Shown here in pieces: positions 5,268 to 52,095 of a stretch of DNA of 64,000 nt. Location of the stretch: positions 1,898 to 65,897 of the forward strand of contig DDSC01000004.1 of the NCBI GenBank assembly GCA_002343265.1. Direction: 5' to 3'. The notes under the pieces were generated by a model. It saw nothing but the letters and a program-made list of their open reading frames with translations. It searched no databases and was not told the origin of the DNA. This stretch comes from Micavibrio sp. UBA2400 (lineage in GTDB: Bacteria; Pseudomonadota; Alphaproteobacteria; UBA2400). The first letter of the stretch is position 1. Each line of letters opens with the position of its first letter. Both the position numbers and the translations under genes were made by a program.

Positions 5268-5367
5268 GGCGCTCTCCTTGGTTGCCGAGAGCAGCATGAA
5301 CAATGGATCTAAGAAGCGCCAATGCCGTGTGGGCTGGGGTTATGCAGCGAGGACATGGCCATAAGGG

Positions 5368-5637
5368 CTAACGGGAGTAGACTTCTCGGCGATGACCAAC
5401 CTTGAGTAACTTTATTGACTTATCCCGATAGTCAATCTTGGCAATTATCCGATAATCCCCAACTCTAAAGCGATGCAATCCTGACAAACTATGCGTAAGA
5501 GACTCAGCCTTCTGTTCAGGATGTGGTGAGGGTAATATATCTTGCTCAAACTTCTTAAAGATGCGCGATTGTATCGATGAGCTAAGCTCGCCGAGTTCTT
5601 TTAGAGCCTTTGGCTCGATGTGAAGTTTCCAAACCAA
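5368..5637 (-). CDS. Type II toxin, RelE/ParE family
   Basis: ...ALKELGEL..IQSRIFKKFE...GDYRIIAKIDYRDKSIKLLKVGHRREVY is the RelE/ParE fold signature. The only possible start is TTG at 5637. Lies in a low-GC region. Confidence 0.75.
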   Translation of the reverse strand: MVWKLHIEPKALKELGELSSSIQSRIFKKFEQDILPSPHPEQKAESLTHSLSGLHRFRVGDYRIIAKIDYRDKSIKLLKVGHRREVYSR

Positions 5638-5833
5638 GTTGAGCCTTTGCGTCTTCGAGACTTACCCATTTTGTCGCCTTTGCCAACCGCTGCTCAGCAA
5701 CAAAAATATCTTCCATATCTTCAAGATGCCGCAATATCGCCTCGCGCGCATAGAATGACTTAGTCCGACCCGTTAACTTAGCTAAGCCGTCTAAGCGGCG
5801 ATCAATGTCTGGTGGCAATCTCAGGGCGAGCAT
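5582..5833 (-). CDS. Ribbon-helix-helix (CopG/ParD-like) antitoxin
   Basis: LRLPPDIDRRLDGLAKLTGRTKSFYAREAILRHLEDMED is an RHH motif. Upstream of, and overlapping, the toxin ORF by 56 nt. Confidence 0.75.
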   Translation of the reverse strand: MLALRLPPDIDRRLDGLAKLTGRTKSFYAREAILRHLEDMEDIFVAEQRLAKATKWVSLEDAKAQLGLETSHRAKGSKRTRRA

Positions 5834-5853
5834 ATCACAATCCTTTGTTTGTT

Positions 5854-5869
5854 GCTATACATGTATAGC
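5854..5869. promoter_or_regulatory. Perfect 16-bp palindrome GCTATACATGTATAGC; candidate operator of the toxin–antitoxin (TA) operon
   Basis: Exact inverted repeat about 20 bp upstream of the antitoxin start, within an AT-rich promoter region. Confidence 0.5.
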
Positions 5870-5985
5870 ATAGCAAAATTGCTACCGCAACAGCTACCGC
5901 GAGGCTTCGCTTTTATTATTAATTTTCAATTAGTTAATTGTACTGATTAAACGCCTCCACCTTCGCGGGGATGACTAAAATAGGA

Positions 5986-6411
5986 TCATCGCGCCATCAA
6001 AAAGAAACCGACAGCAGCACAGGCGAAGCCCAGTAGCTTGGTCGCAGTCATGGTCTCGGTAAAATAAAACACCCCGATGAGAGTGATCAGTGTCAGGCCA
6101 ACTGTCGTAAATAGTGGCGTATAGATACTGATGGGTGCACCAAGAGCGAGGCCTTTGACAAAAAAGAAATCCACGAGACCAATGGTGACGCCCGCCATGA
6201 TGAGCGCCAGAACCAGACGCGGCTGAGCGGCAATAGCGGTAAAATCTATCCGCTGGCGTGAGGCGAACAAGATAATGCCAGTTGTCAGCAAGGCGCACAG
6301 ATAAAACAGGAAGACGATCTGCGCGGCGGGCAATCGGTCGCCCATGTACTTAAGCGCCCCGACATGCAGCGCCCACGCTGTGGCTGAAAGCGTCAGATAT
6401 AAATACCACAT
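5986..6411 (-). CDS. Small membrane protein, DMT/EamA-like (4 TM)
   Basis: Four hydrophobic helices of about 140 aa total, resembling half-size EamA/SMR-like transporters. Confidence 0.5.
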   Translation of the reverse strand: MWYLYLTLSATAWALHVGALKYMGDRLPAAQIVFLFYLCALLTTGIILFASRQRIDFTAIAAQPRLVLALIMAGVTIGLVDFFFVKGLALGAPISIYTPLFTTVGLTLITLIGVFYFTETMTATKLLGFACAAVGFFLMAR

Positions 6412-6554
6412 AGCTTACTCACCGCGATTTAAGAGTAGACCACAGGTTTAGCGCACGGCTCGCCTTCCACCCGACACTGATACGTTATCATGATTCATAA
6501 AAGCAGACAGCCGGGGATATACCCCCCGGCTGCCCAGAGACACGGATATAATAA

Positions 6555-8029
6555 TCAGGCTAAAGCGTGCTTGATCTGCCCATGCAGGCCGGTACTGTCC
6601 GCAGCGACACTTTCCGCCGAAGATTTGATGGCTTGCAGATTATTCTCGATATCCCGCACGGCGGTGGCGGTCAGCTGCATGTTGGAGGAAATTTCATTGG
6701 TCACCGCCGTCTGTTCCTCCACGGCCCCGGCCACTCCGGTCACGCTCTGCTCGACGCCTGTGACGGCCCCGCGGATCGAGTTCAGGGCGCGCACAACGTC
6801 CGTCGAGATAGTCTGCATGGATTCAATCTCTTTGCCGATTTTTTCAGTGGCCTGCGCGACCTGACTGGCCAGATTTTTTACTTCGCTGGCCACCACCGCA
6901 ATCCCTTACCCGCCTCACCCGCACGGGCTGATTCGATGGTCGCATTGAGCGCGAGCAGATTGATGTTGCTGGCGATATCCTGAATAAACTCAATAATACT
7001 GGTCATCGAGCGGGCGCCCTCGGCCAGTTTACCTGTATTCTTGTCAGCCAGTTCAACCTCGCGCACGACATCGCCCACCGCCGATTTGGTACGGGCAACA
7101 CTGCTGGAGATTTCCTGGATCGAGCTGCTCAACTCTTCAGCGGCGCTGGCCACGGTCTGCACGCTGGCTGCCGTTTGCGTGGCAGCCGTTGCCGCCATAG
7201 CGGTCTGCTGCGTGACGCCGCCCAATGCTCCGACCATAGACGAAAACTTCTGGTCGACGACAGCACCGATCTGCCGCTTCTGTACCTGCTCGGTTATATC
7301 GGTGGCGTACTTCACGACCTTGGTCAGGCGACCACTAGGATCATAGATCGGGTTGTAGGAGGCCTGAATCCAGATTTCCTTGCCGCCTTTGCCAAGACGG
7401 CGAAACACTCCAGCCTGATATTTGCCCGCGCGCAGCTCATCCCAGAGCTGGCGATACTCGGGGGTTTTGACATAGTCAGGGTCACAGAACATACGATGGT
7501 GCTGACCCACGACTTCTGACGCGCTATAGCCCAGCGTTGCCAGAAAATTTTCGTTCGCCTTGATGACGGTGCCATCGGGTTTGAATTCGATGACGGCCTG
7601 CGACTTGCTGATCGCCGCGAGCTGACCTTCATAATCCGCATTGCGCAGTTTGGCCTCAGTAATATCGGTGGCAAATTTGACCACCTTGTAGACACGCCCA
7701 CGCTTGTCGAACAGAGGGTTGTAGGATGCCTGAATCCAGATTTCCCTGCCGCCCTTGCCAAACCGCTTGTACTCGGCGGCCTGAAAGCGACCCGACTTCA
7801 GATTATCCCAAAGCTGCTGATACGCAGGGCCCCGCGCCTCCTCGGGATCAACAAACATGCGGTGATGCTGCCCCTTGATCTCGGCCAAGCTATAACCGAC
7901 GGCCTTACAAAAATTTTCATTGGCATCAAGTATCACACCATCGGGCGTGAATTCGATAACGGCCTGTGATTTGGATAGAGCCTCAACCTTGGCTTTATCA
8001 TCTTTTTGACGCGCGAAGAGCGAGAACAT
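6555..8029 (-). pseudogene. Methyl-accepting chemotaxis protein with tandem PAS domains and no TM region (soluble chemoreceptor). Interrupted by a -1 frameshift at about 6900.
   Basis: ORF 6878-8029 encodes two PAS repeats (..QAVIEF.PDG.I..ANENF....GYS..E..GQHHRMF.DP) and the start of the MCP signalling domain, ending ...ARAGEAGKG. ORF 6555-6896 continues ..AVVASEVKNLA.. in another frame. The junction reads gggatt-gcg where MCP consensus G-F-A requires gggatttgcg. Confidence 0.7.
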
Positions 8030-8085
8030 TTATGACCCCCTTTTTTTGTTTTCTGCGACAGGACCTGATGCTTTTACGAATACGA

Positions 8086-8102
8086 GGATATGCTAATAAG
8101 TT
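8086..8102. promoter_or_regulatory. Direct repeat TTAAC-N7-TTAAC in the AT-rich region upstream of the chemoreceptor gene
   Basis: TTAACaggttagTTAAC lies ~60-75 bp upstream of the chemoreceptor start. It resembles a CtrA-type half-site pair, but the spacing is off by one. Confidence 0.25.
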
Positions 8103-8296
8103 AACAGGTTAGTTAACAGCTGTCTTGATTGGTATCAGTTTTGTCCGAATTATTATTGTGTATATCATTCAAATGTTTGTTATATAAACAATAACTATAG
8201 TGACGGTGCTAAAAAGTAAAAATTGATTTGGCCTGAGCGGCCAAAATTAATACATGGCGCACCGCCTCATGCAGACCCGCCGATGCTGCTACGGAG

Positions 8297-22540: not shown

Positions 22541-23314
22541 CTAGAAGTAGCGGAAATCATCAGCCTGACCCGCCGCGGCGCGGGCATCGGTCCGCGTTCC
22601 GTTCAGGATGGCGACGGCACGAGGGTCCAGTGAGCGGAATACCACGGCATTTCCAGTCAGCGCTGGAACCGCGCGGGGGCAGTCAAGTCGCGCGAGATAA
22701 TGCATCACCTCCAGCAGGTCGTGACTGGTGTGTACGCCCCCCACCGCTAACGGGTGTTCGTGCAGTCGCTCCAGCAGCCCCTGGGTCGTCAATGAAATTT
22801 CTTCAGCCAGTTCGCGCGCGGCCTCGTTCGAGCGCATCACGCGGCGGCCATCAAATGCACAACCTGATTCCGGCGTGGCATAAGCATTGAAGACATCGGC
22901 CGCCTTCTCCCGACTGTGTAGGCTTCCCCCCGGCAGAAAGACCAGACTCTCCTGACTGGGGCTGATGGCAACATATGGGTTACTGCGAACATCCAGCCCC
23001 TGCTGAGCCAAGACCCGGTGGGACTGCTGCGCCGCGCCTTCAATAGTCCGATCATACTGGAGTGTCGTGGCAGGCGGCCACCCCACCCGCAGCACCTCAC
23101 CATACAATGTACTGATGCCCGGCCGTAGCGTTGCCATAACGGCGCGGGGTGGCGCGCTCGAATTCAGCCGCTCACGGGCGGGATAGAAGACGATGCGCCC
23201 TAGCCCGGCCGCTACTCCTGCAGAGCCGATATGACGAAAAGCCTCAAGCAGAAAGCGATAGGGTAAAATGTAAGCACTGTGGACAACTGACATTATATAA
23301 TCCTGAAATTTCAT
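22541..23314 (-). CDS. Hypothetical protein (257 aa)
   Basis: Long ORF co-oriented with phoR. His-rich segment HEHPLAVGGVHTSHDLLEVMH. No family recognised. Confidence 0.4.
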   Translation of the reverse strand: MKFQDYIMSVVHSAYILPYRFLLEAFRHIGSAGVAAGLGRIVFYPARERLNSSAPPRAVMATLRPGISTLYGEVLRVGWPPATTLQYDRTIEGAAQQSHRVLAQQGLDVRSNPYVAISPSQESLVFLPGGSLHSREKAADVFNAYATPESGCAFDGRRVMRSNEAARELAEEISLTTQGLLERLHEHPLAVGGVHTSHDLLEVMHYLARLDCPRAVPALTGNAVVFRSLDPRAVAILNGTRTDARAAAGQADDFRYF

Positions 23315-23424
23315 AGCGGGAATGCGGCCGATATAAGCAGATCAGACCCCGCCATTGCAACCGAAATCAGGTTAGGCGAAGTTTGGCCTATTTTTACAGG
23401 CATTCCTATGGTTAAGACGCCCTC

Positions 23425-24201
23425 TTATGCGGGGGCCAGTCCACCCACGGGGCGGCCGGGAACACCGCTCGGGGGTTCGGGCAGCGGCGTGGGCGGAAAA
23501 ACCGCACCCCACTGGAGGCATTCACACTCATCCTCTTCACCCGCGCCGGGGTCCTGATGACGAACCAGCTGTGCAGCCCGATAGATAACAAGGTCGGCTG
23601 ATTGCGGGTTCGTCCGGCACAAGTGCGTGAACTGTTCAGCCAGACGATCGCGCTGGCCAAGCTTGGTTTCCAGAGTCTGGATATCCTCGGCCAGAAACTC
23701 GGCCAGCGGGAACGGCTCCCCATCATCCGCGCTATCAGCTTCCCACTCACGTATATCGGATGCATAGTGTGCTCGCGCTGGCTGACTATTGCCGTGCGCG
23801 AGCTGGGTTTGCAACGTCTGCAACAACTCTAGGCGTGCTGCCTTGGGCGCAAAGCGCTGATCCAGCAGGGCCTGTTGATTAAAAATGGTGACTTTCTCCT
23901 GACGCACCAGCAGCCCCTCACTCGCCAATGACTCAAGACGGGTTCGAACCTCGGATTCACTCAAGACAGGTGGGAAGTGTGAGAAACGCGAGCCTTCATC
24001 CATGAGTGGCAAGGCCAGTCGGGTCAGCCATGAGCAGGCCTGACGCTGCTGGCGGGCAAATTCCGTACTCACCTCATGCACCTCGCGGGCAGTTAGCCAT
24101 GGCGGGTAGAACCCCAACACCGTCCACAGGTGATGTTCGACCAGATTATTACGCAGGCTCATCAGCAATTCTCCTGGCGGGCACTTTAGCGCCCCCCACA
24201 C
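23425..24201 (-). CDS. Hypothetical protein (about 245-258 aa) with a possible winged-helix segment
   Basis: Long ORF. An alternative start MSLRNN lies at 24162. LSESEVRTRLESLASEGLLVRQEKV resembles a wHTH. Acidic C-terminal half. Confidence 0.4.
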   Translation of the reverse strand: MWGALKCPPGELLMSLRNNLVEHHLWTVLGFYPPWLTAREVHEVSTEFARQQRQACSWLTRLALPLMDEGSRFSHFPPVLSESEVRTRLESLASEGLLVRQEKVTIFNQQALLDQRFAPKAARLELLQTLQTQLAHGNSQPARAHYASDIREWEADSADDGEPFPLAEFLAEDIQTLETKLGQRDRLAEQFTHLCRTNPQSADLVIYRAAQLVRHQDPGAGEEDECECLQWGAVFPPTPLPEPPSGVPGRPVGGLAPA

Positions 24202-30518: not shown

Positions 30519-31709
30519 TTAGCGCGGTAACAACCGCCGCACCGTCACAGGCGCGAGCTGTGCTAGACGCCGTACAGTGGGTGGGAGGCCTGCCAATTGA
30601 GTGGCGGAAAAACGGGTCCTCGCCGATTTGCCGCTCGTAGGTGGCAACGCCCCGCCTTCCGCACTACGTCCTACACTGGCATCGGCCTCTATGATCGCCC
30701 GGACACTAGCCGCTGTGAGTTCGCCATGGCCAACCGCCAGCGGGTCCGGCTCGCTCAGGTCCAGATCCAGCTCGGTCTGCCGGTCATCGACCGCGCCAGC
30801 GATCATTAAGTCATCCAGCCACTGCCAGCTGGCATCAAGACCAAACAATTTGTGCCGCCCAGCCAGAAGCATGCCAGCATAATGCGCGGGCTTAGCCGGG
30901 ATGCGGCGGCGCCCCAGTGCATCAATCGCCCCTTCGATTGCGGCATCGTCATAGCCGCGCGCATCCTGCAAGGTCAACAAACGCTCGCGGGTAACCTGAT
31001 CGCTATGCACGTCGATCGGATTAAGCTGCGTTAGGCTGTGCCAGACATCGTTCATGTCCGGACTTGGATAGTGATCGCGCACGGCCACGGCTGGCCAGCG
31101 AAAATTGCCAATCTTACGCGCCGGGATAAACTCACCACCGCTAAGCATATAATCAAGCAACAGCTCTTTGGCCCCCGGCGCGACCGGCCACGGCGCTGGG
31201 TTAGCTTTATGGCTGGCCAGATGCCTGAACCACGCGGTGGCCGGCTTGCGAACTGGCGTCTTGAGTGCAATCAGGGTTGAGTTGCTCGGGAAGTATCTGA
31301 CGTGGGGCCGCAGATTCGTGCGCTGAGACAGCAACAAAAAGACATCAACCGGAGGATGCCGGGGCGACCTGACTCGCATGGCACTGGCGAGAGATCCAAG
31401 ATACTGGGCCGGATTGTTATAAAAAGGCGCGGTGCGCAGAGGCTGGCGAATTTGCCGGTTCATGCCCAGCATACGCCCATCGAGTACCATCACAATCAGG
31501 CTCCGGCCCGCGGCCGGGTGCGCGATTTCGCTGAACATCTCCTTCACATCATCCGGTTCGGGCGCGGCCAAGCCATCCCCCACCTGCCACACCATGCTGG
31601 TTTCAGGGCCGCTGAAGGCTTGGCTAAGATCCCGCAGGTCATAGCCAGGCTGGGTGTTGGTGCCCTCGCCCCAAAGAATGCCAACCGACTGAACCGGGCG
31701 TGTTTCCAT
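30519..31709 (-). CDS. Hypothetical protein, paralog A of a tandem pair (396 aa)
   Basis: Shares with paralog B: V(G/A)I(L/I)WGEGT(N/S).Q, L(I/L)V.(V/I).DG, SLASA....PPVDVFLL(L/V) and colinear W-rich blocks. No family recognised. Confidence 0.6.
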   Translation of the reverse strand: METRPVQSVGILWGEGTNTQPGYDLRDLSQAFSGPETSMVWQVGDGLAAPEPDDVKEMFSEIAHPAAGRSLIVMVLDGRMLGMNRQIRQPLRTAPFYNNPAQYLGSLASAMRVRSPRHPPVDVFLLLSQRTNLRPHVRYFPSNSTLIALKTPVRKPATAWFRHLASHKANPAPWPVAPGAKELLLDYMLSGGEFIPARKIGNFRWPAVAVRDHYPSPDMNDVWHSLTQLNPIDVHSDQVTRERLLTLQDARGYDDAAIEGAIDALGRRRIPAKPAHYAGMLLAGRHKLFGLDASWQWLDDLMIAGAVDDRQTELDLDLSEPDPLAVGHGELTAASVRAIIEADASVGRSAEGGALPPTSGKSARTRFSATQLAGLPPTVRRLAQLAPVTVRRLLPR

Positions 31710-31715
31710 GACTAA

Positions 31716-32876
31716 CTATCCTTTTTGTAAACGACGGCGGGTGGAGGCAGGCAGGGCGTGTGCAAAGGGCTGTAATCTTTTTGGTAAAGCGGTGATCTCT
31801 GCGCCAGTCAGGCGGCGCACGGGCGCGCGCTGAGCCGGTGGGCGGGGTTGTTCCGTAACAGTGGCTACTACGACTCGTTCGATTGGCGGCGCACTCGCCT
31901 GAACCACCGGAACGGAGGTCACCACCCCAACGTCAACCGGATTATCGTTGGCGGCGACGAGAGTAAACATATTGCGCAGACGACTGGCAGTTTCATGACG
32001 ATCAAAACATTCGGCGGCGAGGGCGAGATAGAGCCGTTCCTTGATCTCAACTCGTTCATGACTCAAAACCGGCCGGCCGACGATGGGGTAGCGGGCAGCC
32101 AGATAGTTAAGTCGCCCGCGGTTGGCGTGGCGCTGCGACCATCCGTGCAGAGAGATGGTATCGACCAGTTGGCGCTGGCTGGCATACTCATGCCACAGCT
32201 CATTAAGGTGAATACGCTTGCAGCCCGACACCGCAATGTCGGGTACACCCCAATAGCCCCGTTTGCCCGAGGCCATCAGGTCGATCAGCAGATCTTTTGC
32301 GGCGGGCGGCGTAGCCCAGTGCATGGCCCGGTTGCCCGCGGCATCAAGCCCATAGACACTGCTGTGCACCCAGCTATCGGTTACAGTGTTGGGGCGCATG
32401 CGTACCGCCACCACAGTAGAGCCGCGCGGTAACTGGCGGGCGAGAGCATGAATAAAATCGGTTTTACGGGCCACCAGCAGAAAAACATCGACCGGTGGGC
32501 TGGCTTTGGGCAGCGCTGACGCCAATGAACGCAAGAGCCATGGCGCGTCCCGTCCGCTATGCCACAGATGAGCGGGCTGCACTTTATCGCGGCGCCAGCC
32601 ATCCATGATTCCCACCAACAGGCGGCGGTTGAAGGCGGCAGCCGTAAAGTCTTTCAACAGCTGCTGCACGTCCCTAGCCGCGGGTACAGAATCGCCATCA
32701 CCGCACACCCGCAAGGGTGTATTGGGATTGCCGCTAAACGCCGTATAAGATGCGCCGTAGGAAACGGGCAGTTGATGCTGATTGGACGTGCCCTCACCCC
32801 AGATGACGGCAACGGAATCAATCTCTTGAGAAACAACCTGCGCAGGCATGGCAGGCAACCTAGCGGCGCTCGCCAC
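31716..32876 (-). CDS. Hypothetical protein, paralog B of a tandem pair (386 aa)
   Basis: See paralog A. The pair is colinear and co-oriented, 6 nt apart, with a divergent Pro/Arg-rich C-terminal tail. Confidence 0.6.
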   Translation of the reverse strand: MASAARLPAMPAQVVSQEIDSVAVIWGEGTSNQHQLPVSYGASYTAFSGNPNTPLRVCGDGDSVPAARDVQQLLKDFTAAAFNRRLLVGIMDGWRRDKVQPAHLWHSGRDAPWLLRSLASALPKASPPVDVFLLVARKTDFIHALARQLPRGSTVVAVRMRPNTVTDSWVHSSVYGLDAAGNRAMHWATPPAAKDLLIDLMASGKRGYWGVPDIAVSGCKRIHLNELWHEYASQRQLVDTISLHGWSQRHANRGRLNYLAARYPIVGRPVLSHERVEIKERLYLALAAECFDRHETASRLRNMFTLVAANDNPVDVGVVTSVPVVQASAPPIERVVVATVTEQPRPPAQRAPVRRLTGAEITALPKRLQPFAHALPASTRRRLQKG

Positions 32877-41216: not shown

Positions 41217-41921
41217 ATGAACAAAATTTATCCCGACGCCAAGGCCGCACTGGCGGGTGTCCTGAAGGACAATATGACCATCATGGCCGGGGGCTTTGGC
41301 CTGTGCGGCATTCCAGAAACCCTGATTGAGGCTATTCGCGAAAGTGGCGTAAAGGGCCTCACCTTCATTTCCAACAATGCCGGGGTCGATGGTTTTGGCC
41401 TTGGTAAGCTGCTGGAAACCAAGCAGATCAAAAAAATGATCTCGTCCTATGTGGGCGAGAATAAGTTGTTTGAGCAGATGTTTCTCAGCGGTGAGCTGCA
41501 GCTGGAATTCAACCCGCAAGGGACGCTGGCCGAGCGCATTCGTGCCGGTGGCGCAGGGATTCCCGCCTTCTTCACCAAAACCGGCTATGGCACCATTGTC
41601 GCCGACGGTAAAGAGGTGCGTGAGTTTGACGGCGAAATGTATGTCATGGAGCGGGCGCTTAAAGCTGATCTCGCCATTGTGAAGGCGTGGAAGGCCGACC
41701 GCGAGGGTAATCTGGTCTACCGCAAGACCGCACGCAACTTCAACCCGATGATGGCCACGGCCGCCACGCTGTGTGTGGCCGAGGTCGAGCAGATTGTGGA
41801 CACGGGCGCACTGGACCCGGATGCCATCCACACTCCCGGTATCTTCGTCAAGCGCCTGCTGCACGGCGCGCGCTACGAAAAGCGCATCGAACAGCGCACC
41901 ACCCGCAAAAAAGCTGCCTAA
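41217..41921 (+). CDS. scoA: 3-oxoacid CoA-transferase subunit A
   Basis: CoA-transferase family I alpha subunit motifs (...[11 protein letters not shown]..., ...SENG...). Confidence 0.9.
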
Positions 41922-41931
41922 GGAGAGCACC

Positions 41932-42585
41932 ATGCCCTGGACCCGTGACCAACTGGCCGAACGCGCCGCCAAGGAGCTGCGCGATGGGTATTATGTCAAT
42001 CTTGGTATCGGCATCCCCACTCTTGTCGCCAACTACATTCCGGCGGGGATGGATGTGACCCTGCAAAGCGAGAACGGCATGCTGGGTATCGGCCCCTTCC
42101 CGTTTGAAGGGGAAGAAGACCCGGACCTCATCAATGCGGGCAAGCAGACCATTACCGCCTTGCCGCGCTCAAGTTATTTCAGCAGCGCCGAGAGCTTTGC
42201 CATGATCCGGGGCGGGCATATCGACCTGTCCATTCTGGGGGCCATGCAGGTTTCCGAATTTGGCGATCTGGCCAACTGGATGGTGCCCGGCAAGATGGTG
42301 AAAGGCATGGGCGGCGCGATGGATCTGGTCGCGGGCGTCAAAAATGTGGTGGTGGTGATGGAACACACCACCAAAGAGGGCGAAAGCAAGTTTCTGCCCA
42401 GCTGTAATCTGCCGCTGACCGGCAAGGGCGTGGTCGACCTGCTGATTACCGATCTGGCCGTTTTCCGCATTGACGCCAAAAGTGGTGCTCAACTTATTGA
42501 GCTGGCACCGGGCGTAACGCTGGAGGAGGTAAGAGCCAAGACGGCGGCCACGTTTACGGTTGCGGCGCAGCTGAAGGCGGCGTAA
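41932..42585 (+). CDS. scoB: 3-oxoacid CoA-transferase subunit B
   Basis: Beta subunit with catalytic-Glu region [12 protein letters not shown] aaggag before ATG 41932. Confidence 0.9.
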
Positions 42586-43566: not shown

Positions 43567-44436
43567 TCAGCGAACGGCGGTCGCGGCTGGCGTTACGCCC
43601 GGCACAGCCGCCGACGTGCTGGCCGCACTGCCATGGACATAGAGTCCGCGCTGGCCATCCATCGGTTTGAAGGCTTGCGTTACGCCCAGCACCGTTTCGG
43701 CCCCGCCCAGATAGAGGATGCCGTCGGGCGGCATCTGGCGGCCAATGCCTTCGAGCACCTTGGCTTTGGTCGCGGGATCGAAATAGATCAGCACATTGCG
43801 GCAAAACACAATATCGAACTGGCCGAGCGCCGTCATCGGCTCCAGCAGATTGAACTGCTGGAACTTGATCTTGCCCTGCATCTGCTTGCTGATCTGCCAC
43901 TTGTCGCCGATCTGGGTGAAGTGCTTGACCAGCATGGTAATGGGCAGACCACGCTGCACCTCGAACTGGGTATAAAGCCCCTGCTTGGCTTTTTCGAGCA
44001 CTTCACGGCACAAATCAGTTGCCACGATCTCGATAGTCCAACCCGGCATCTTGCTGGCTTCTTCATCAAGAATCATTGCCAGCGAATATGGCTCCTGCCC
44101 GTTGGAACAGGCTGCCGACCAGATGCGCAGGCGGCGCGTGGCGGCCCGCGCCTGCAAGAAGCGCGGCAGCACCACCTGACGAAACTGGTCGAAGGGCTTT
44201 TGGTCACGAAAGAAGGATGACTCATTCGTCGTCATCGCATCGGTAATATCAGCCAGCAGAGCCTCATCAGACTTGCTGCGCAGGGCATTGGCCAGTTCGC
44301 CCAGATCCTTGAAGTTCCAGCGGCGGGCCACCGGCATCAGGCGGCTGTCCAGCAGATAGGCCTTTTCCTTGGTCAGTACGAGACCGGAGCGCTGATAGAC
44401 GAATTTGGCAAACAGATCAAAATCTTCAACTCTCAT
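43567..44436 (-). CDS. cheR: Chemotaxis protein methyltransferase CheR
   Basis: CheR N-terminal helical domain plus SAM-MTase domain (...TNESSFFRD..., IWSAACSNGQEPYSLAM). Start MRVEDF overlaps the cheB stop (ATGA). Confidence 0.9.
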   Translation of the reverse strand: MRVEDFDLFAKFVYQRSGLVLTKEKAYLLDSRLMPVARRWNFKDLGELANALRSKSDEALLADITDAMTTNESSFFRDQKPFDQFRQVVLPRFLQARAATRRLRIWSAACSNGQEPYSLAMILDEEASKMPGWTIEIVATDLCREVLEKAKQGLYTQFEVQRGLPITMLVKHFTQIGDKWQISKQMQGKIKFQQFNLLEPMTALGQFDIVFCRNVLIYFDPATKAKVLEGIGRQMPPDGILYLGGAETVLGVTQAFKPMDGQRGLYVHGSAASTSAAVPGVTPAATAVR

Positions 44437-45593
44437 GCCGCCCCCGCTTTCTTGCGCAGGTAAGGCCCAATCTCGGGCAGTGGTAACACGGCAGCACACA
44501 CACCCGCCGTGGCGACTGCCCCCGGCATTCCCCACACCACCGAGGTGGGCTGGTCCTGAGCGACGATCATGCCCCCGCCATTCACGACGATTTCGCTGCC
44601 CTTCAGGCCATCGGCCCCCATCCCGGTCAGGATAGCCACCAGCATACGGTTGGCACCATACATCTCAATCAGGCTGCGCAGCATCGGGTCTACTGCCGGG
44701 CGACAGAAATTCTCCTGCGGCCCGGAGTCAAGCCGCGCCACCACCCCACTGGCTGTCCGGGTAAAGAGCAGATGGAAATCGCCCGGCGCCAGCAGCGCCT
44801 TGCCGGGGGTCAGGACACTGCCGTCCTTGGCCTCTTCACACGGAACCCCGGTCTGACGCGTGATGTGGTCAGCCAGAATGGTGGTAAAAGTCTTGGGCAT
44901 ATGCTGGGTGATGACAATCGGCTGCTTGAGGTTTTTAAGGTGCGGTAGCACGGCGAACAAGGCCTGCGGCCCGCCGGTAGAGGAGCCGATGGCGATCACA
45001 TCCGGTACCAGCGCGGGTGCCGGACGCAAGGTAATCTTGCCCCCTTCATACAGGCGCGATTTGGTAACGATGGGCGGCGCGCTACTTGGCGCACCCGGAC
45101 TGACTGTACGAGCCACAACGCCCGCGGGCAGTGGGCCGACTTTGCCAAGGCGCTGACGCTCGCGCCAGGCACCGTTGCCCAGCTCCCGCACTTTCTCCAG
45201 CAGGTCGCGTTTCCAGTCCGCCGTAGCATCGACCTCACGGGTGGAGGTCGGCTTGCTGACATAATCGGCCGCCCCCAGCGCCATGGCGCGCAGGCTGATC
45301 TCGGCCCCCTGCAAGGTGAGGGTGGACGACATGATAATGCGGGCCCAGGGCTGCGCTTTCATCAGCAGGGGAATGGCGGTCAGGCCATCCATCACCGGCA
45401 TTTCGATATCAAGGATGATGACATCCGCCAGTTCGCGTTGGGCAAAGCTCACGCCGGCCTGCCCGTCCGCCATGGAGCCGACGATGAGGGCCTCGGGAAT
45501 ATCGGTCAGGGCGCGGGTGACAAAGCCGCGGATGACCGCAGAGTCGTCGACAATAAGCACCCGGATCGGGTCGGCAACAGTGGGTTCAGGCAT
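44433..45593 (-). CDS. cheB: Chemotaxis response regulator protein-glutamate methylesterase CheB
   Basis: REC domain (VLIVDDS...D) plus methylesterase domain with the GSSTGGP catalytic Ser and a His/Asp triad. Confidence 0.9.
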   Translation of the reverse strand: MPEPTVADPIRVLIVDDSAVIRGFVTRALTDIPEALIVGSMADGQAGVSFAQRELADVIILDIEMPVMDGLTAIPLLMKAQPWARIIMSSTLTLQGAEISLRAMALGAADYVSKPTSTREVDATADWKRDLLEKVRELGNGAWRERQRLGKVGPLPAGVVARTVSPGAPSSAPPIVTKSRLYEGGKITLRPAPALVPDVIAIGSSTGGPQALFAVLPHLKNLKQPIVITQHMPKTFTTILADHITRQTGVPCEEAKDGSVLTPGKALLAPGDFHLLFTRTASGVVARLDSGPQENFCRPAVDPMLRSLIEMYGANRMLVAILTGMGADGLKGSEIVVNGGGMIVAQDQPTSVVWGMPGAVATAGVCAAVLPLPEIGPYLRKKAGAA

Positions 45594-45602
45594 AGTCCTT
45601 GG

Positions 45603-45971
45603 TTATCCAATCAGGCCGACTTGTGAAAACTTGGTCTGGATGATGTCGCTGTCAAACGGCTTCATGATGTACTCATTGGCCCCAGCCGACAGCGCTTCCT
45701 TGATGTGATTGAGGTCCGCCTCGGTGGTGCAGAACAGAACTTTGGGCTTGTCGCCACCGGGCATCTTGCGCAGCTCGCGCAGAAACTCAATCCCGTTCAT
45801 CACCGGCATGTTCCAGTCGAGGAGAACGGCGTCCGGCATGGCCTTGCTGCAGGCTTCCTGTGCTTTCTTGCCGTCTTCGGCTTCCGTACAGGTGAATTTG
45901 AGATCTTCCAGAATCTTCCGGGCGATCTGCCGCACGACACGGCTGTCATCAACAATCAGACAGGTTGCCAT
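45603..45971 (-). CDS. cheY: Chemotaxis response regulator CheY
   Basis: Single-domain REC (LIVDDS, LLDWNMP phospho-Asp, conserved T and K) within the che operon. Confidence 0.9.
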   Translation of the reverse strand: MATCLIVDDSRVVRQIARKILEDLKFTCTEAEDGKKAQEACSKAMPDAVLLDWNMPVMNGIEFLRELRKMPGGDKPKVLFCTTEADLNHIKEALSAGANEYIMKPFDSDIIQTKFSQVGLIG

Positions 45972-46006
45972 TCTCGTTCCCCTTACCCCATCACGATCAT
46001 CTGCGC

Positions 46007-46492
46007 TCAGGCGGCGGACGCCGCGGAGAGATTCAACAGAGCCGCAATATCAATCACGACCATCAACTGACCTTGTAACCGGTATATCCCACGCGAGACA
46101 TCCCGCCAACGGGGATCCAGTGTCGGTGGATTGGCTTCAAAATCAGCCGCATCCAGCGACATGACTTCGCCCACCTGGTCGATCAGCAGGCTGTACTGCT
46201 CGCCATTAAGATCAACCACGACGCTCATGCCCTTCATCTCAGCCGGGCGCGGCGGCAGACCCAGCCGGGTACGGACATCGATCGCCGTTACGATGCGCCC
46301 ACGCAAATTGAGCGAGCCCGCGACCTCGACCGGGGCCAGCGGAATACGGGTGAGCCGCTGCGGCCCGAGCACATCGCGAACCTGCAGCACCGGAATGCCA
46401 AACAACTGTCCGGCAATCGTCATCGTCACATACCCATTGGCCACCGACGGCTCGGCCGCACTGGCGGCGTGAAGAGGGGTAACATTACTCAT
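46007..46492 (-). CDS. cheW: Chemotaxis coupling protein CheW
   Basis: Single CheW-like domain (...FGIPV..V.......P.....G..NLRG..V..ID...). Confidence 0.9.
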   Translation of the reverse strand: MSNVTPLHAASAAEPSVANGYVTMTIAGQLFGIPVLQVRDVLGPQRLTRIPLAPVEVAGSLNLRGRIVTAIDVRTRLGLPPRPAEMKGMSVVVDLNGEQYSLLIDQVGEVMSLDAADFEANPPTLDPRWRDVSRGIYRLQGQLMVVIDIAALLNLSAASAA

Positions 46493-49200
46493 GCGGCACC
46501 TCGCTGGGCTTGCAGGGTTTGGGACAGGGTCGAGAGCAGCGCCTCACGATCGAACTTGGCGACGTGATTGGCAAAACCGGCACGGCGACCGCGATCCTGA
46601 TCGATATTGGTCGCGTGGCTCGACAAAGCAATCACCGGTACGGCCTGCCAGCGGGCATCCTTCTTGAGCGCCTCCACAAACTCGAACCCGCTCATCCCCG
46701 GCATTTCGATATCGCTGACGATGATGTCAAACTCCACGTCACCCTGACAGAGCTGGAGCGCATCAATCGCGCTTTCTACCGTGGTGACCTGATAGCCCGA
46801 GACGTTCAGCAGCGGGGTCAGCATATTACGGAAGAAGGAGCTGTCATCAACCAGCAGGATGCGCTGGGCCCGGCCTTCCTCTTTGCCCTGAAACGCAGTC
46901 GTCGCGCCGAAGAAGTCCTTGAAGGTACGGGTCAGATAGAACCCGGCATCAATGACTTCGGTGCTGCGTCCGGCGATAATGGCTGAGCCCATCAGACCTT
47001 GCGAGTCACTGCCAAGCTGCACGTTGAGGTGTTCTTCAACGATATCGACAATCTCGTCGACCACCAGACCTACCGAGCGCTCGCGATCCGCAAAGACCAG
47101 CACCGGCTGATTGCCCTCGCTGCGCAGCTTGACGCGCTCGTTGAGCGGGATCAGCGGCATCAGGCTGCCGCGGTACTGCACCACCGCCTGACCACCGGAC
47201 TGCTCGATGGTGGCGACGTCGATATCCTCGAGGCGGGCAACCAGCGACAGCGGCACCGCCTTGGGTGCCGTATCACCCGCACGGAACAGGAGCATGGCCA
47301 GTTTGTCGCCACGCTGGGTCGCAGGATTACGCGCTTCCTCAGTGGTCTTCTGCTCGTCCTCACCTGCCGCCTTACCGGTGGCGGCGGCGATGCCGTTGGG
47401 ATCGAGAATCATGATGACGCTGCCGTCGCCCAAAATGGTATTCCCCGAGAACATGTCGATATGGCGCAGGATTGGCGCGACCGGCTTGACCACGATTTCC
47501 TCGGTGTCAAAGACGCGATCCACAATGATGCCGAACGTCTGGCTACCGACTTGTGAGACAACGATGGTCGCCTCGGCAGTCGGCGCGGCCACAGAGGGCA
47601 GCTTGAGCAACGCTGAGAGCGTGACCAGCGGCAGCAGGCGATTGCGCAGACGCAGAACCGGCGCGTTATTGATATGCTCAATCGAATTGTCGCTGTTCTT
47701 GCCACCAGCACGCACCAATTCAAGCACACTGATCTGGGGGATAGCAAACCGCTCGCCCGCGCTTTCCACGATCAGGGCCGACACAATAGCCAGTGTCAGC
47801 GGGATCTTGATGGTAAAGGTACTGCCCTTGCCTTCCACCGACTTCATGTCGATGGTGCCGCCGATCTTTTCGATATTGGTGCGCACGACATCCATGCCCA
47901 CTCCGCGGCCGGATACGGCGGTCACCTGTGCTGCGGTAGAGAACCCCGCCTTGAAGATGTACATATGCACCTGGGCATCGGACATGACCTTGACTTCAGC
48001 TTCGGTCGCCATGCCGTTCTTGATGATCTTTTCGCGGATTTTCTGGGTCGGGAGACCACGGCCATCGTCGGAAATCTGGATGATGATATGCCCGCCCTCG
48101 TGGAAAGCGTTCAGAGTGACACGGCCGGTTTCCTTCTTACCCGCCTTGATGCGGTCGGCTGGGGTCTCAAGACCATGGTCGGCTGAGTTGCGCACCATAT
48201 GGGTGAGCGGGTCCTTGATCATCTCCAGGACCTGACGGTCGAGTTCCGTTTCGGCGCCGAGCATCTGCAGATCAATTTTCTTGCCCAGTTCGCTCGACAG
48301 ATCGCGAATGATGCGCGGCAGCTTGCTCCAGGCATTGCCAATCGGCTGCATGCGCGTCTTCATGACCTGCTCCTGCAGGTCGCTGGTCACATGATTAAGC
48401 CGCTGCAGCGGCGCGGCAAACTCGGTGTCTTTTTGCGTGCGCAGGATCTGCAGCATCTGATTGCGGATCAGCACCAGTTCGCTGACCATGGTCATCAGAC
48501 CTTCCAGCACATCAACATTGACACGCAAGGACTGGTTGGCCAGCGCGGACTCTGCCGCTGGCGCGCTTTCCTTGACGGGCGCGGTTGAGGCGGCAGTCGG
48601 CGCACTGGCGGGGGGTGGCGTCAGCTCAGCCGTCTTATGGGCGGGCACAGGGACAAACCCATGCTCATCGGGAGCCGGGCTGGTAACGGCCGCGGCCACA
48701 TCGGCGGTCTTGTGGGCGGGCACCGGCACAAAGCCATGCTCGTCCGGCACCGGTTCGCTGCTGACCGGAGCCGAAGCTGCGGCCAACGGGGGCGCAGCAG
48801 CAGCAGGGACGCCGCCGCCATCCTTGCCATCGGCATGATCGTTGAGCTGGGCAATCAGCTCGGTATCGGCCCCTTCCGGTTCGGTCCCGGCTTCTTCCAG
48901 CGCGGCCAACAGGGTTTTGATCCGGTCAAGCGCAGCCAGAATGAGGGTGACGGAATAGGGCGTAACCGGCAGTTTGCCATCACGGAATTTGCCAAGAATG
49001 TTTTCGCCAGCATGAGCGACCTGCTCCAGACGGGGCAAGCCAAGAAAGCCGCAGGTGCCCTTGATGGTATGCACCGTCCGGAAAATTGTGTTGAGCAGCG
49101 CCGGGTCGTTGGGGTTCTGCTCGAGCTTGATGAGCTCGTTATCGAGCACCGCGAGATTCTCGTTCGTCTCGGTCAAAAATTCGCGCAGCAGATCATCCAT
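46489..49200 (-). CDS. cheA: Chemotaxis histidine kinase CheA. Hybrid: Hpt, dimerisation domain, HATPase, two CheW-like domains, C-terminal receiver.
   Basis: Hpt with H in TVHTIKG. CheA dimerisation/HATPase blocks (DHGLE, ISDDGRGL, GRGVGMDVV, GKGSTF). Two CheW-like domains. C-terminal REC (ILLVDDS...D in SDIEMPGMSG...K). Confidence 0.9.
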   Translation of the reverse strand: MDDLLREFLTETNENLAVLDNELIKLEQNPNDPALLNTIFRTVHTIKGTCGFLGLPRLEQVAHAGENILGKFRDGKLPVTPYSVTLILAALDRIKTLLAALEEAGTEPEGADTELIAQLNDHADGKDGGGVPAAAAPPLAAASAPVSSEPVPDEHGFVPVPAHKTADVAAAVTSPAPDEHGFVPVPAHKTAELTPPPASAPTAASTAPVKESAPAAESALANQSLRVNVDVLEGLMTMVSELVLIRNQMLQILRTQKDTEFAAPLQRLNHVTSDLQEQVMKTRMQPIGNAWSKLPRIIRDLSSELGKKIDLQMLGAETELDRQVLEMIKDPLTHMVRNSADHGLETPADRIKAGKKETGRVTLNAFHEGGHIIIQISDDGRGLPTQKIREKIIKNGMATEAEVKVMSDAQVHMYIFKAGFSTAAQVTAVSGRGVGMDVVRTNIEKIGGTIDMKSVEGKGSTFTIKIPLTLAIVSALIVESAGERFAIPQISVLELVRAGGKNSDNSIEHINNAPVLRLRNRLLPLVTLSALLKLPSVAAPTAEATIVVSQVGSQTFGIIVDRVFDTEEIVVKPVAPILRHIDMFSGNTILGDGSVIMILDPNGIAAATGKAAGEDEQKTTEEARNPATQRGDKLAMLLFRAGDTAPKAVPLSLVARLEDIDVATIEQSGGQAVVQYRGSLMPLIPLNERVKLRSEGNQPVLVFADRERSVGLVVDEIVDIVEEHLNVQLGSDSQGLMGSAIIAGRSTEVIDAGFYLTRTFKDFFGATTAFQGKEEGRAQRILLVDDSSFFRNMLTPLLNVSGYQVTTVESAIDALQLCQGDVEFDIIVSDIEMPGMSGFEFVEALKKDARWQAVPVIALSSHATNIDQDRGRRAGFANHVAKFDREALLSTLSQTLQAQRGAA
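48632..48781. repeat. Imperfect 75-bp tandem duplication inside the cheA Hpt–kinase linker
   Basis: Units start at 48632 and 48707 (gtctt(a/g)tgggcgggcac...). Encodes the duplicated peptide PDEHGFVPVPAHKTA. Confidence 0.6.
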
Positions 49201-49332: not shown

Positions 49333-49989
49333 TCAGGCAGCGACCGGGACAGGCGTATAAACAAGGCTCATGTCCAAACGATCCTCGCCGCTCTGGCTCC
49401 ACCCCAGCTTGACCCCATAATGCTCGGCAAACCGGGCTGTGATATAGGGGTGAATGCTACGTGCCGTAAGGTCATCTATCGCTACGTCACCCTTAAGTGC
49501 GGGCCAGGCTTCCTCCCGGGTTCCTGCGCCACGACCTTGGGCGAGGATGGTAAGGCGGCCCGGTTCAGGCCGCGCCACCTCAATCGTGCCGCCGTGGACC
49601 AGATTTTCTACAGCCACGATCAACAGGTTAAGCAATACCTTGGGCACTCCGCGCGGCTGCCCGGTGATATCTTTCATAACCGCCGCATCCCAGCTGATGG
49701 CGGCCCGACTGCCGGCCAGATAATCGCGCAGAGTTGTCAAAATATCATCGCAGGACAGATTGGCATCGGCCCCGGCTGCCCCATAGCCCACGCGAAACAA
49801 CCGCAGACGCCGCGCGGCCTGCTCGGAAGAATGGCCGATCAGCTTGGCGGCCTCTTCCCCCACCTGTGCGCCCATTTCTTCAAGTAATTCAACACCGTTA
49901 CTGATGGCCCCCACCGGACTGATGAGGTCGTGGCAGATGCGCGAGGCCAGTAATTCCATCACGCGCAGATTTTCCAGCACCGGCGGCAT
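49333..49989 (-). CDS. ChpT-family histidine phosphotransferase-like protein (DUF2328-type)
   Basis: ELLASRICHDLISPVGAISNGVELLEE is the ChpT-type HisKA-like helix with conserved His. Followed by a degenerate ATPase-like domain. SD aaggag is best placed for ATG 49989. Confidence 0.6.
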   Translation of the reverse strand: MPPVLENLRVMELLASRICHDLISPVGAISNGVELLEEMGAQVGEEAAKLIGHSSEQAARRLRLFRVGYGAAGADANLSCDDILTTLRDYLAGSRAAISWDAAVMKDITGQPRGVPKVLLNLLIVAVENLVHGGTIEVARPEPGRLTILAQGRGAGTREEAWPALKGDVAIDDLTARSIHPYITARFAEHYGVKLGWSQSGEDRLDMSLVYTPVPVAA

Positions 49990-50112
49990 GGTCATCTCCT
50001 TAAATTCTGTCGCGGGCGCACCTGTGTGGCCCGAAGACACCATCGCTGGTTTACCTTATTTTGGCAACATCCTCACTAGGGATTGTTTACTTTTCACCCG
50101 GCACACTCGGGC

Positions 50113-52095
50113 ATGGCCTCGCGCTCCCTTTTTCAGTCCGACACCGCCGCCCACGACCTCGGGCTCTCCCTGCTTGGGCAGCTCGGGACGGGCGATGGCC
50201 TGCTGAGCAGTGTTGTCCCTCTGCGCGCCGTATTGATGCAGATGCTCACGCTCTACAGCTCGGCGGTGCTGGTGATCGCCGGGTTCATCGTGTTGTATTA
50301 TTTTACGCTGGTCATTGTCGATGCCGCCAAAACCGGTCAGGCCTTCCGGCGGATCGACCCGGTATGGGGGCCGCTGCGGCTAGTGATCGCCATTGGCATT
50401 CTGGTGCCTCTGGGCGGCGGCCTGAACAGCGGCCAGCTGATGGTGCTACAGCTCTCGCAGTGGGGTTCCGGTCTGGCGTCCCAGCTCTGGCAGCAGGTGG
50501 GCGAAGATAGCCAGTTGGTACAGCCCATGATCGCGCGGCCTGGCCCGGTACCGGCGCTAGCGCTAGTGCGCGCACTGGTGCTGCGCGATGCCTGCGTGGC
50601 CTACACTACTCGCTTGGCCTATGAGCAGCAGACCGCCTATCGCCGCGCTCGCGAAGCAATCAAATCCGACAAACCCGCCAATGATGCCCCGGTTCTAACG
50701 CCACCAACGCTCTATCCGGTTCTCGCCCAGCCGGTCGCTACCAACGCCGATGGCTCGCAGACGACACCCTATGGCTGGACCGAGCGGCCTTATTTTTGCG
50801 GCTCCACCACTATTTTTCCGCCCACTCCGCGCACCGAAGAAACCCTGTTCAACCTGCTCAAGCAGGCCCATGTTGATGGCCTGCGCCGACTAGAAGGACG
50901 TACACAGGAATACGCGCAGGACTATCTGCAGCTGGCCATGGGGCAGCGATTGCTTAACAACCGCTCGCCTCTGACACTGGCCGAAATCTATGAGACGGAG
51001 TTGCGCTTTGCCAATTCACCCGGCTTCAACAGTGCGCTGGGCCAGCACCTGTCGATCCTGCACAACCAGCTCCGACCGCTCGGCTGGGTGGGGGCGCCCG
51101 CTTATCTGGATTCGATTCTACGCTTGAATCTGCGTTTGATCAGCTTGAACGCCTCCCTGCCCCAGATTGACCCACCTGAGGTTCTGATTGCGCCGCCGCC
51201 ACTGGCGACTGCGACGGCTGCGGAAACCAAAATCTACGAACTGTTACACCGCATTGACCGCTCATGGGGCGATGTAGCGCGCGTCCCCCCGCTCAGTGCG
51301 GCGGGATTGGGTGGCTTATCTACCTTGCTCAGCCATGCGGTCGCGCTGTCGCGCGAAGTGCCCGGTACAGGCGCGGCCGGTCACCAGTTGCGGGTGGCAC
51401 GCGATCTGATGCAAACCAGCGATTATGACTGGGCGACCTTTGCCCGACAAAATCCACTGGTGGGTCTGGCTGAACTTGGCACCTATCTGACCGGCAAAGC
51501 CGCCGGACTGCTGGCCGGAGCGGGGGTGCTGGATAGCGTGGGTCCGGTCACCGGGCCAATGGTGGTGATGATTACCGCTTTGGGTCTGATGGCATTCGTT
51601 GTCAGCATTGCCCTGCTGCTGGTCCTGCCGCTGATCCCCTTGGTCCGGTTTTTTCTCGGCGTCGCGGTCTGGCTGGTGGAAGTGTTTGAAGCGCTCATCG
51701 CTATTCCGCTGGTCGCGCTGGCCCATCTGCGCGCCGACGAGCATGGGCTGGCCGGACAAAGTGCCATTTTGTGCTATCTGATGATCCTCAAGATCATGCT
51801 GCGTCCGGCCCTGATGGTTCTGGGTCTGCTTGGCGGCTTCATCCTGTTCCTGATCCTGCTCGGGGCGCTAAACAGCCTGTTGGCCGGCAGTATGCCCGGC
51901 GTTATTAACAGTGGCCAGATCTCCAGCCTGTGGTTTGTGCTGGTGAGCGGGGTTTATGCCCTGCTGCTGCTGGGAATTGCCAATGCCTGCTTCAAGCTGA
52001 TCGACTGGCTGCCCCAGCGCACTTTAACCTGGCTGCAAGGCCTGCTGCAGCCGGGGCGCAACCACGGCCAAACAGCCCCGGAACCGACCGCTTGA
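50113..52095 (+). CDS. Large polytopic membrane protein (about 660 aa), unassigned. Topology vaguely TrbL/VirB6- or DotA/TraY-like.
   Basis: N-terminal pair of TM helices, an approx. 330-aa non-hydrophobic central domain, and a C-terminal cluster of 5-6 TM helices. The ORF opens at TTG 50083; first ATG at 50113. Confidence 0.5.
   Translation: MASRSLFQSDTAAHDLGLSLLGQLGTGDGLLSSVVPLRAVLMQMLTLYSSAVLVIAGFIVLYYFTLVIVDAAKTGQAFRRIDPVWGPLRLVIAIGILVPLGGGLNSGQLMVLQLSQWGSGLASQLWQQVGEDSQLVQPMIARPGPVPALALVRALVLRDACVAYTTRLAYEQQTAYRRAREAIKSDKPANDAPVLTPPTLYPVLAQPVATNADGSQTTPYGWTERPYFCGSTTIFPPTPRTEETLFNLLKQAHVDGLRRLEGRTQEYAQDYLQLAMGQRLLNNRSPLTLAEIYETELRFANSPGFNSALGQHLSILHNQLRPLGWVGAPAYLDSILRLNLRLISLNASLPQIDPPEVLIAPPPLATATAAETKIYELLHRIDRSWGDVARVPPLSAAGLGGLSTLLSHAVALSREVPGTGAAGHQLRVARDLMQTSDYDWATFARQNPLVGLAELGTYLTGKAAGLLAGAGVLDSVGPVTGPMVVMITALGLMAFVVSIALLLVLPLIPLVRFFLGVAVWLVEVFEALIAIPLVALAHLRADEHGLAGQSAILCYLMILKIMLRPALMVLGLLGGFILFLILLGALNSLLAGSMPGVINSGQISSLWFVLVSGVYALLLLGIANACFKLIDWLPQRTLTWLQGLLQPGRNHGQTAPEPTA

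Follow-up and report, generated by a model that had tools for sequence, protein, structure and literature searches.

Does the only chemoreceptor locus in this stretch of DNA from an uncultured alphaproteobacterium hold a broken gene, an intact gene misread by sequencing, or a gene whose separated parts still have a role? The window, meaning the whole 64-kb stretch that was analysed, contains a receptor gene divided between two minus-strand reading frames at a single missing base. The explanation preferred here, and considered likely, is that a recent, genuine deletion has knocked out an accessory gene, one that encoded a cytoplasmic PAS-PAS MCP of the AerC/McpS/McpY type.

The split gene and its missing base

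The gene occupies positions 8029..6555 of the minus strand, and its 1475 nt are not divisible by 3. It is made up of the following parts:

6878..8029, minus strand: ORF A, 383 aa, found as the exact protein P0071 in public assemblies
6555..6896, minus strand: ORF B, 113 aa, with a GTG start in the -1 frame, a separate gene call in public assemblies
6900..6901, minus strand: frameshift site, TT left over from the Phe codon of G-K-G-F-A-V-V-A, with one base missing

ORF A encodes both PAS domains, PAS1 (about 7969..7649) and PAS2 (about 7603..7280), together with the first, N-terminal helix of the hairpin in the MCP signalling domain. Its in-frame part stops at ...ARAGEAGKG and is followed by seven out-of-frame residues (LRWWPAK) and a TAA codon at 6880..6878, the C-terminal end reading ...GEAGKGLRWWPAK before the stop (also written ...NATIESARAGEAGKGLRWWPAK). 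ORF B encodes the C-terminal helix of the same hairpin, VVASEVKNLASQ...HALA; its open frame, taken from stop to stop, begins at 6905, and the two ORFs overlap by 19 nt. Across the site the minus strand reads GGT AAG GGA TTG CGG TGG TGG CCA GCG AAG TAA, with GGATTGCG corresponding to plus 6904..6897. The tandem duplication of the PAS domains is visible in the DNA itself as direct repeats on the minus strand (7280-7969), spaced by 366 nt and up to 72% identical over 65 nt.

Addition of one base after GGA TT yields a 491-aa PAS-PAS-MCP protein with two PAS domains and the MCPsignal domain of Pfam, and restores an alignment with homologues from end to end. The division into ORFs 6878–8029 and 6555–6896 made by the first-pass annotation, and the break that it placed at G-K-G-F-A-V-V-A, are thus borne out in coordinates and in sequence. 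An HMM of the signalling domain built from the homologues matches with its positions 1-96 in ORF A and 97-212 in the frame of ORF B (E 1e-50), and gives no further match in the six frames of the 64-kb window. The split gene is accordingly the only chemoreceptor there, as had been claimed before.

The base was lost from the most conserved part of the protein. In the alignment of the repaired protein with intact homologues the stretch A-R-A-G-E-A-G-x-G-F-A-V-V-A is invariant, and both sides of the MCP tip motif E-x-A-R-A-G-E-x-G-x-G-F-A-V-V-A are present in the window, the continuous frame being broken at the Phe codon. Against Tsr the numbering is offset by 19 throughout the alignment, which has no net gaps over Tsr 294-502, and the affected Phe is therefore the equivalent of Tsr F396. 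This residue belongs to a phenylalanine pair that every known MCP has in the middle of its protein-interaction tip (PMC6681711).

An ortholog comparison, proposed in the first-pass annotation, found the gene intact in the closest ortholog (L084), which has GGC TTT GCC at the site vs GGA TT- GCG in the window. The sole single-base gap in that gene alignment is the frameshift site; the other gap is a 3-nt indel at codon 9. The lost base is likeliest a T, since the ortholog has TTT and since TTT is the commoner Phe codon in the window (339 vs 248 TTC), the C of a TTC codon being less likely. The earlier description of a T missing from a TTT run holds to that extent, with the qualifications that the run is just TT (TTT when intact) and that the C of TTC is possible.

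Genomic setting and age of the lesion

The receptor gene lies in a segment that differs from its surroundings in base composition and varies between relatives. The features of this segment, and the chemotaxis genes of the window, are:

5353..8296, no strand assigned: variable segment of about 2.94 kb, 51% GC vs 59.6% for the window
5368-5833, minus strand: ParE-toxin-like ORF (89 aa, PF05016) overlapping a ribbon-helix-helix antitoxin-like ORF (83 aa, TraY/DUF6290)
5986-6411, minus strand: EamA-like ORF, 141 aa, with a single sub-threshold EamA match (24.4 bits vs 28.2)
6504..6536, minus strand: intrinsic-terminator-like hairpin, a 14-bp stem followed by CTTTTATGAA, 19 nt past the ORF B stop
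8030..8296, minus strand: upstream intergenic region, AT-rich (39% GC)
49200..43567, minus strand: cheA-W-Y-B-R operon, about 36 kb from the receptor gene
49333-50043, minus strand: gene for a ChpT-like histidine phosphotransferase, preceding the che operon

The cargo of the segment consists of the receptor gene, the EamA-like ORF and the ParD/ParE-like ORFs, the last two forming a toxin-antitoxin pair of type II. At half the usual size of an EamA transporter, the EamA-like ORF could be what remains of a gene, or else a half-size transporter. On one side the receptor gene is neighboured by lysS, an ankyrin-repeat gene and motB/motA, and on the other by the EamA-like ORF and the toxin-antitoxin pair, then His_Phos_1 and LysR genes. 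The upstream region 8030..8296 contains a terminator-like hairpin of lysS (8245..8227) and a GGGGG Shine-Dalgarno sequence ahead of the ATG. With an AT-rich upstream region of its own and terminator-like hairpins at both ends, the receptor gene looks monocistronic.

In a related genome whose LysRS is 87% identical (L089), about 11 nt (2139-2149) separate lysS from the His_Phos_1 and LysR genes, and two further relatives (L085, L086) have yet another arrangement at the lysS locus. The polarity of the insertion is read from the single syntenic comparator L089, the alternative being a deletion in the lineage of that contig. The flanks of the ~2.9-kb segment were searched for direct and inverted repeats indicative of a mobile element, with no convincing result. 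The receptor gene is thus part of the accessory cargo of a small variable segment, which was probably gained by horizontal transfer. Because it sits on a ~2.9-kb low-GC insertion beside a ParDE pair, it counts as dispensable cargo, of a kind that commonly decays.

The first-pass annotation had also raised the case of a che operon without a local receptor, and within the window this is true: a six-frame HMM search found no receptor gene in or adjoining cheA-W-Y-B-R. The CheA protein (903 aa) has the order Hpt-dimerisation-ATPase-CheW-REC; there are two CheW-like stretches in it, and the receiver domain is C-terminal. As to the host, the best named relatives of the LysRS are just 60-64% identical and come from Azospirillaceae, Aliidongia, Inquilinaceae and Stellaceae MAGs.

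The two parts of the gene have diverged from the ortholog to the same degree. Amino-acid identity is 76.8% upstream and 77.2% downstream of the shift, pN is 0.157 and 0.158, respectively, and synonymous sites are saturated in both parts. The ortholog alignment contains no further indel or stop in ORF B. On this evidence the inactivation is recent, because for nearly all its history ORF B was held to the constraint seen in the remainder of the gene; absence of downstream decay is equally expected from an artefact.

The same figures bear on a possible second life for the shortened product. A truncated 383-aa PAS-PAS protein might be kept for a receptor-independent role, for instance as a sensor in its own right or as a dominant-negative partner, given that the start of ORF A, its Shine-Dalgarno sequence and both PAS domains are intact and that no other allele was seen. 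Such retention is unlikely: ORF A ends in a lone helix of ~115 residues that normally needs an antiparallel partner, no homologue has an architecture truncated in this way, and ORF B carries the same signature of purifying selection as ORF A. Since the constraint on the two ORFs is equal, the shift is so recent that selection for a new role could not yet be seen.

A real deletion or an artefact

The first-pass annotation had set a pseudogene and a homopolymer sequencing error side by side. The former is favoured by the recurrence of the allele in several assemblies, by the Illumina origin of the reads, by the shortness of the run and by the lack of another split gene, and the error is disfavoured on the same grounds. 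The single-base deletion is very probably genuine.

The exact 383-aa product P0071 is on record from NCBI, JGI, ENA and Logan. The TT allele is found in ENA ERZ761603 (a SPAdes contig at 24x), JGI 3300030366, Logan SRR1506985 and a 96.8-kb NCBI contig. In addition, ENA ERZ761602 has a separate 863-nt contig (L092) at 1.8x that reads ggtaagggattgcggtgg, again the TT allele. The four contigs named first are 100% identical to the window, the ENA, JGI and Logan loci over 4.2-16.9 kb; the long contigs, identical over 7-17 kb, may all represent one population with partly shared reads, and the assemblies are not fully independent. A minor intact allele may be present in the sampled population.

The Logan contig of SRR1506985 (L083 / L091, positions 1-23) opens with an untrimmed piece of the Illumina TruSeq adapter, its 3' end cctacacgacgctcttccgatct, and the reads are therefore Illumina reads. 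Illumina sequencing has a very low indel error, and consensus indel errors at a run of two or three bases are very unlikely. The ~60 other ORFs in the window have full-length, unsplit Pfam matches, and Pfam scans of these ORFs revealed no second split gene in the 64 kb. A second frameshift was considered for scoA/scoB, whose ORFs overlap (41217-42585), and rejected, these being two normal CoA-transferase subunits.

An intact product would carry the junction stretch ...AGEAGKGFAVVASEVK. Among 5.8 billion protein clusters there was no intact allele of more than 77% identity. The exact pattern GGTAAGGGATT[N]GCGGTGGTGGCCAGCGAAGT, in either allele, had no match in the metagenome contigs, a collection that does not include these samples; the pattern does match the window.

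An artefact would mean that the true genome has TTT (or TTC) at the site and that the receptor gene is intact. This would agree with the fully preserved downstream frame and its unchanged constraint, with the identity of the long contigs, whose reads were possibly shared, and with the location of the site in a short T run. Against these stand the Illumina reads and the 24x consensus coverage in SPAdes, the same allele in at least four assemblies from different assemblers and in the second ENA sample at 1.8x, a run of two or three bases that is no context for homopolymer errors, and the absence of any other frameshifted gene in 64 kb. Taken together, these points leave an error in the sequence quite improbable.

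It is less probable still, indeed highly improbable, that the deletion is real and the fixed frameshifted allele nevertheless yields an active receptor. Two routes were considered. In the first, -1 slippage at G_GGA_TTG would give a full-length protein with G-K-G-(I/L)-A-V-V-A, i.e., Ile or Leu in place of the tip Phe; in the second, ORF B would be translated from its own GTG and the halves would reassemble by non-covalent association, which, if true, would mean a chemoreceptor that is split in nature, with the break at the U-turn of its hairpin. A -1 shift exactly here does restore the frame, an SD-like AAGGGA lies 5 nt upstream of the GTG of ORF B, the ORFs share a 19-nt overlap, and the allele appears to be fixed in the sampled population. 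However, the site is G GGA TTG and not a slippery heptamer of the type X XXY YYZ. The downstream RNA fold is insignificant (z = -1.25, with 26/200 shuffles folding as well), and its stem arises from conserved VAS/LAS codons that are also present in the intact ortholog. All homologues examined are unshifted, both routes lack or replace the invariant Phe (PMC6681711), and a split at the U-turn would break the tip that binds CheA/CheW.

Three specific mechanisms were rejected. Programmed -1 frameshifting lacks a slippery heptamer and a significant downstream structure, and the homologues are encoded in one frame. Transcriptional slippage in the A6 run would provide no bypass, as the TAA that ends ORF A already overlaps the first bases of the run. 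A phase-variable (contingency) locus does not fit a run of just TT (TTT when intact).

The preferred explanation, a recent loss by genuine deletion, can be put as a sequence of steps. Before the deletion, the 491-aa protein would have sensed an intracellular signal, probably redox or flavin-linked as judged from its family, via its two PAS domains, and the hairpin tip of its four-helix-bundle signalling domain would have controlled CheA/CheW. With one base lost from the codon of the invariant tip Phe, translation would stop seven codons on. The truncated product would end just past the U-turn, without the whole C-terminal hairpin helix. Because this helix is missing, the product would form no antiparallel four-helix bundle and would not bind CheA/CheW; the C-arm of the adaptation region would be lost with it.

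The locus is an ordinary recent pseudogene of little importance beyond annotation. Its annotation should be that of one frameshifted (pseudo)gene encoding a soluble PAS-PAS chemoreceptor, in place of two hypothetical proteins, and it should not be counted as a working receptor in the chemosensory repertoire of this alphaproteobacterium. It neatly illustrates how an accessory sensor gene, acquired not long ago, is lost by a one-base deletion in the most conserved codon of its family.

Other coding regions were noted in passing. ORFs of 670, 396, 386, 257 and 258 aa have coding-like GC3 and no Pfam match at E ≤ 1e-3 to 1e-5, and just outside the window, where the public contig runs on beyond position 1 (L090, 17951-20342), there is a gene with a called product of 4213 aa and no recorded Pfam hit. 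The regions with Pfam-less ORFs are:

50083-52095, plus strand: Pfam-less ORF region
30519-32876, minus strand: Pfam-less ORF region
22541-24201, minus strand: Pfam-less ORF region

Architecture of the repaired protein and comparison with known receptors

The signalling domain of the repaired protein is recognised by PF00015 at residues 323-476 (96.7 bits vs a cut-off of 34.6), and each of the Pfam models PAS_3, PAS_4 and PAS_9 matches two stretches. There is no match to HAMP (PF00672) at E ≤ 1e-3, and no transmembrane segment, the maximum Kyte-Doolittle mean over 19 residues being 1.08. The two PAS domains and the lack of a membrane span reported by the first-pass annotation are thereby confirmed; its label "Aer2-like" is not, as HAMP is absent and the NCBIfam Aer2 model scores 60.2 bits vs a cut-off of 1200, over the signalling domain alone. 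PAS2 runs almost straight into the signalling helix. The methylation consensus [ASTG][ASTG]xx[EQ][EQ]xx[ASTG][ASTG] occurs in the N-arm as ASAAEELSSS at 294 and SSSIQEISSS at 301, and the C-arm has GAVEEQTAVT, a near match.

The closest intact homologue of the repaired protein is P0076 (492 aa, 77% identity, aligned end to end); a scan of genome contigs with the repaired protein gave a best match of 57%, and Rhizobiaceae loci are about 40-43% identical to the query over nearly its full length. The best PDB match of the PAS pair is the tandem-PAS sensor 3EWK, with DosP and Aer as further solved relatives. W74 in PAS1 aligns with the Trp of E. coli Aer, and both W74 and W196 (PAS2) are invariant among the homologues. 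The FAD-contact region of Aer around R57/H58/D60 is not conserved (HHRMFVDPE vs HNMVRHPDM).

Aer2 has a PAS-heme domain with HAMP domains on both sides, and in AerC a pair of N-terminal PAS domains precedes the MCP signalling domain, without TM or HAMP (PMC13401364). McpS and McpY are soluble receptors found in polar arrays, their localisation being aided by CheA (PMC8563088), and the two are of the same general kind as the repaired protein (PMC13401364, PMC8563088). The predicted architecture of the repaired protein matches the AerC/McpS/McpY type and not Aer2, the latter being rejected because there is no HAMP domain.

Among known systems, AerC of Azospirillum brasilense, a cytoplasmic energy-taxis receptor of the PAS_FAD2 type, has the same PAS-PAS-MCP layout when compared by description. 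The Trp that serves FAD association in AerC/Aer would correspond to W74 in PAS1, by alignment with Aer, and to its counterpart W196 in PAS2. The hosts are also alike, the present one belonging to the Rhodospirillales neighbourhood of the alphaproteobacteria and having a cheA(REC)-W-Y-B-R operon. Unlike AerC, the gene here is frameshifted, and the residues around the Aer FAD contacts R57/H58/D60 differ. McpS (Pseudomonas aeruginosa) and McpY (Sinorhizobium meliloti) are likewise soluble PAS-containing MCPs, but the relationship is distant and the gene here is interrupted. The heme-based O2 sensor Aer2/McpB (P. aeruginosa, Vibrio) is a soluble PAS-containing MCP too; its PAS-heme domain lies between HAMP domains, whereas the repaired protein is without HAMP and matches the Aer2 model weakly, over the signalling domain.

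The locus as it now stands resembles ordinary frameshift pseudogenes, having the same single-base indel, a premature stop a few codons on, no more decay than that, and a location next to a toxin-antitoxin pair, on an insertion that is low in GC and specific to the strain. Unlike them, it carries its lesion in the single most conserved residue of its family.
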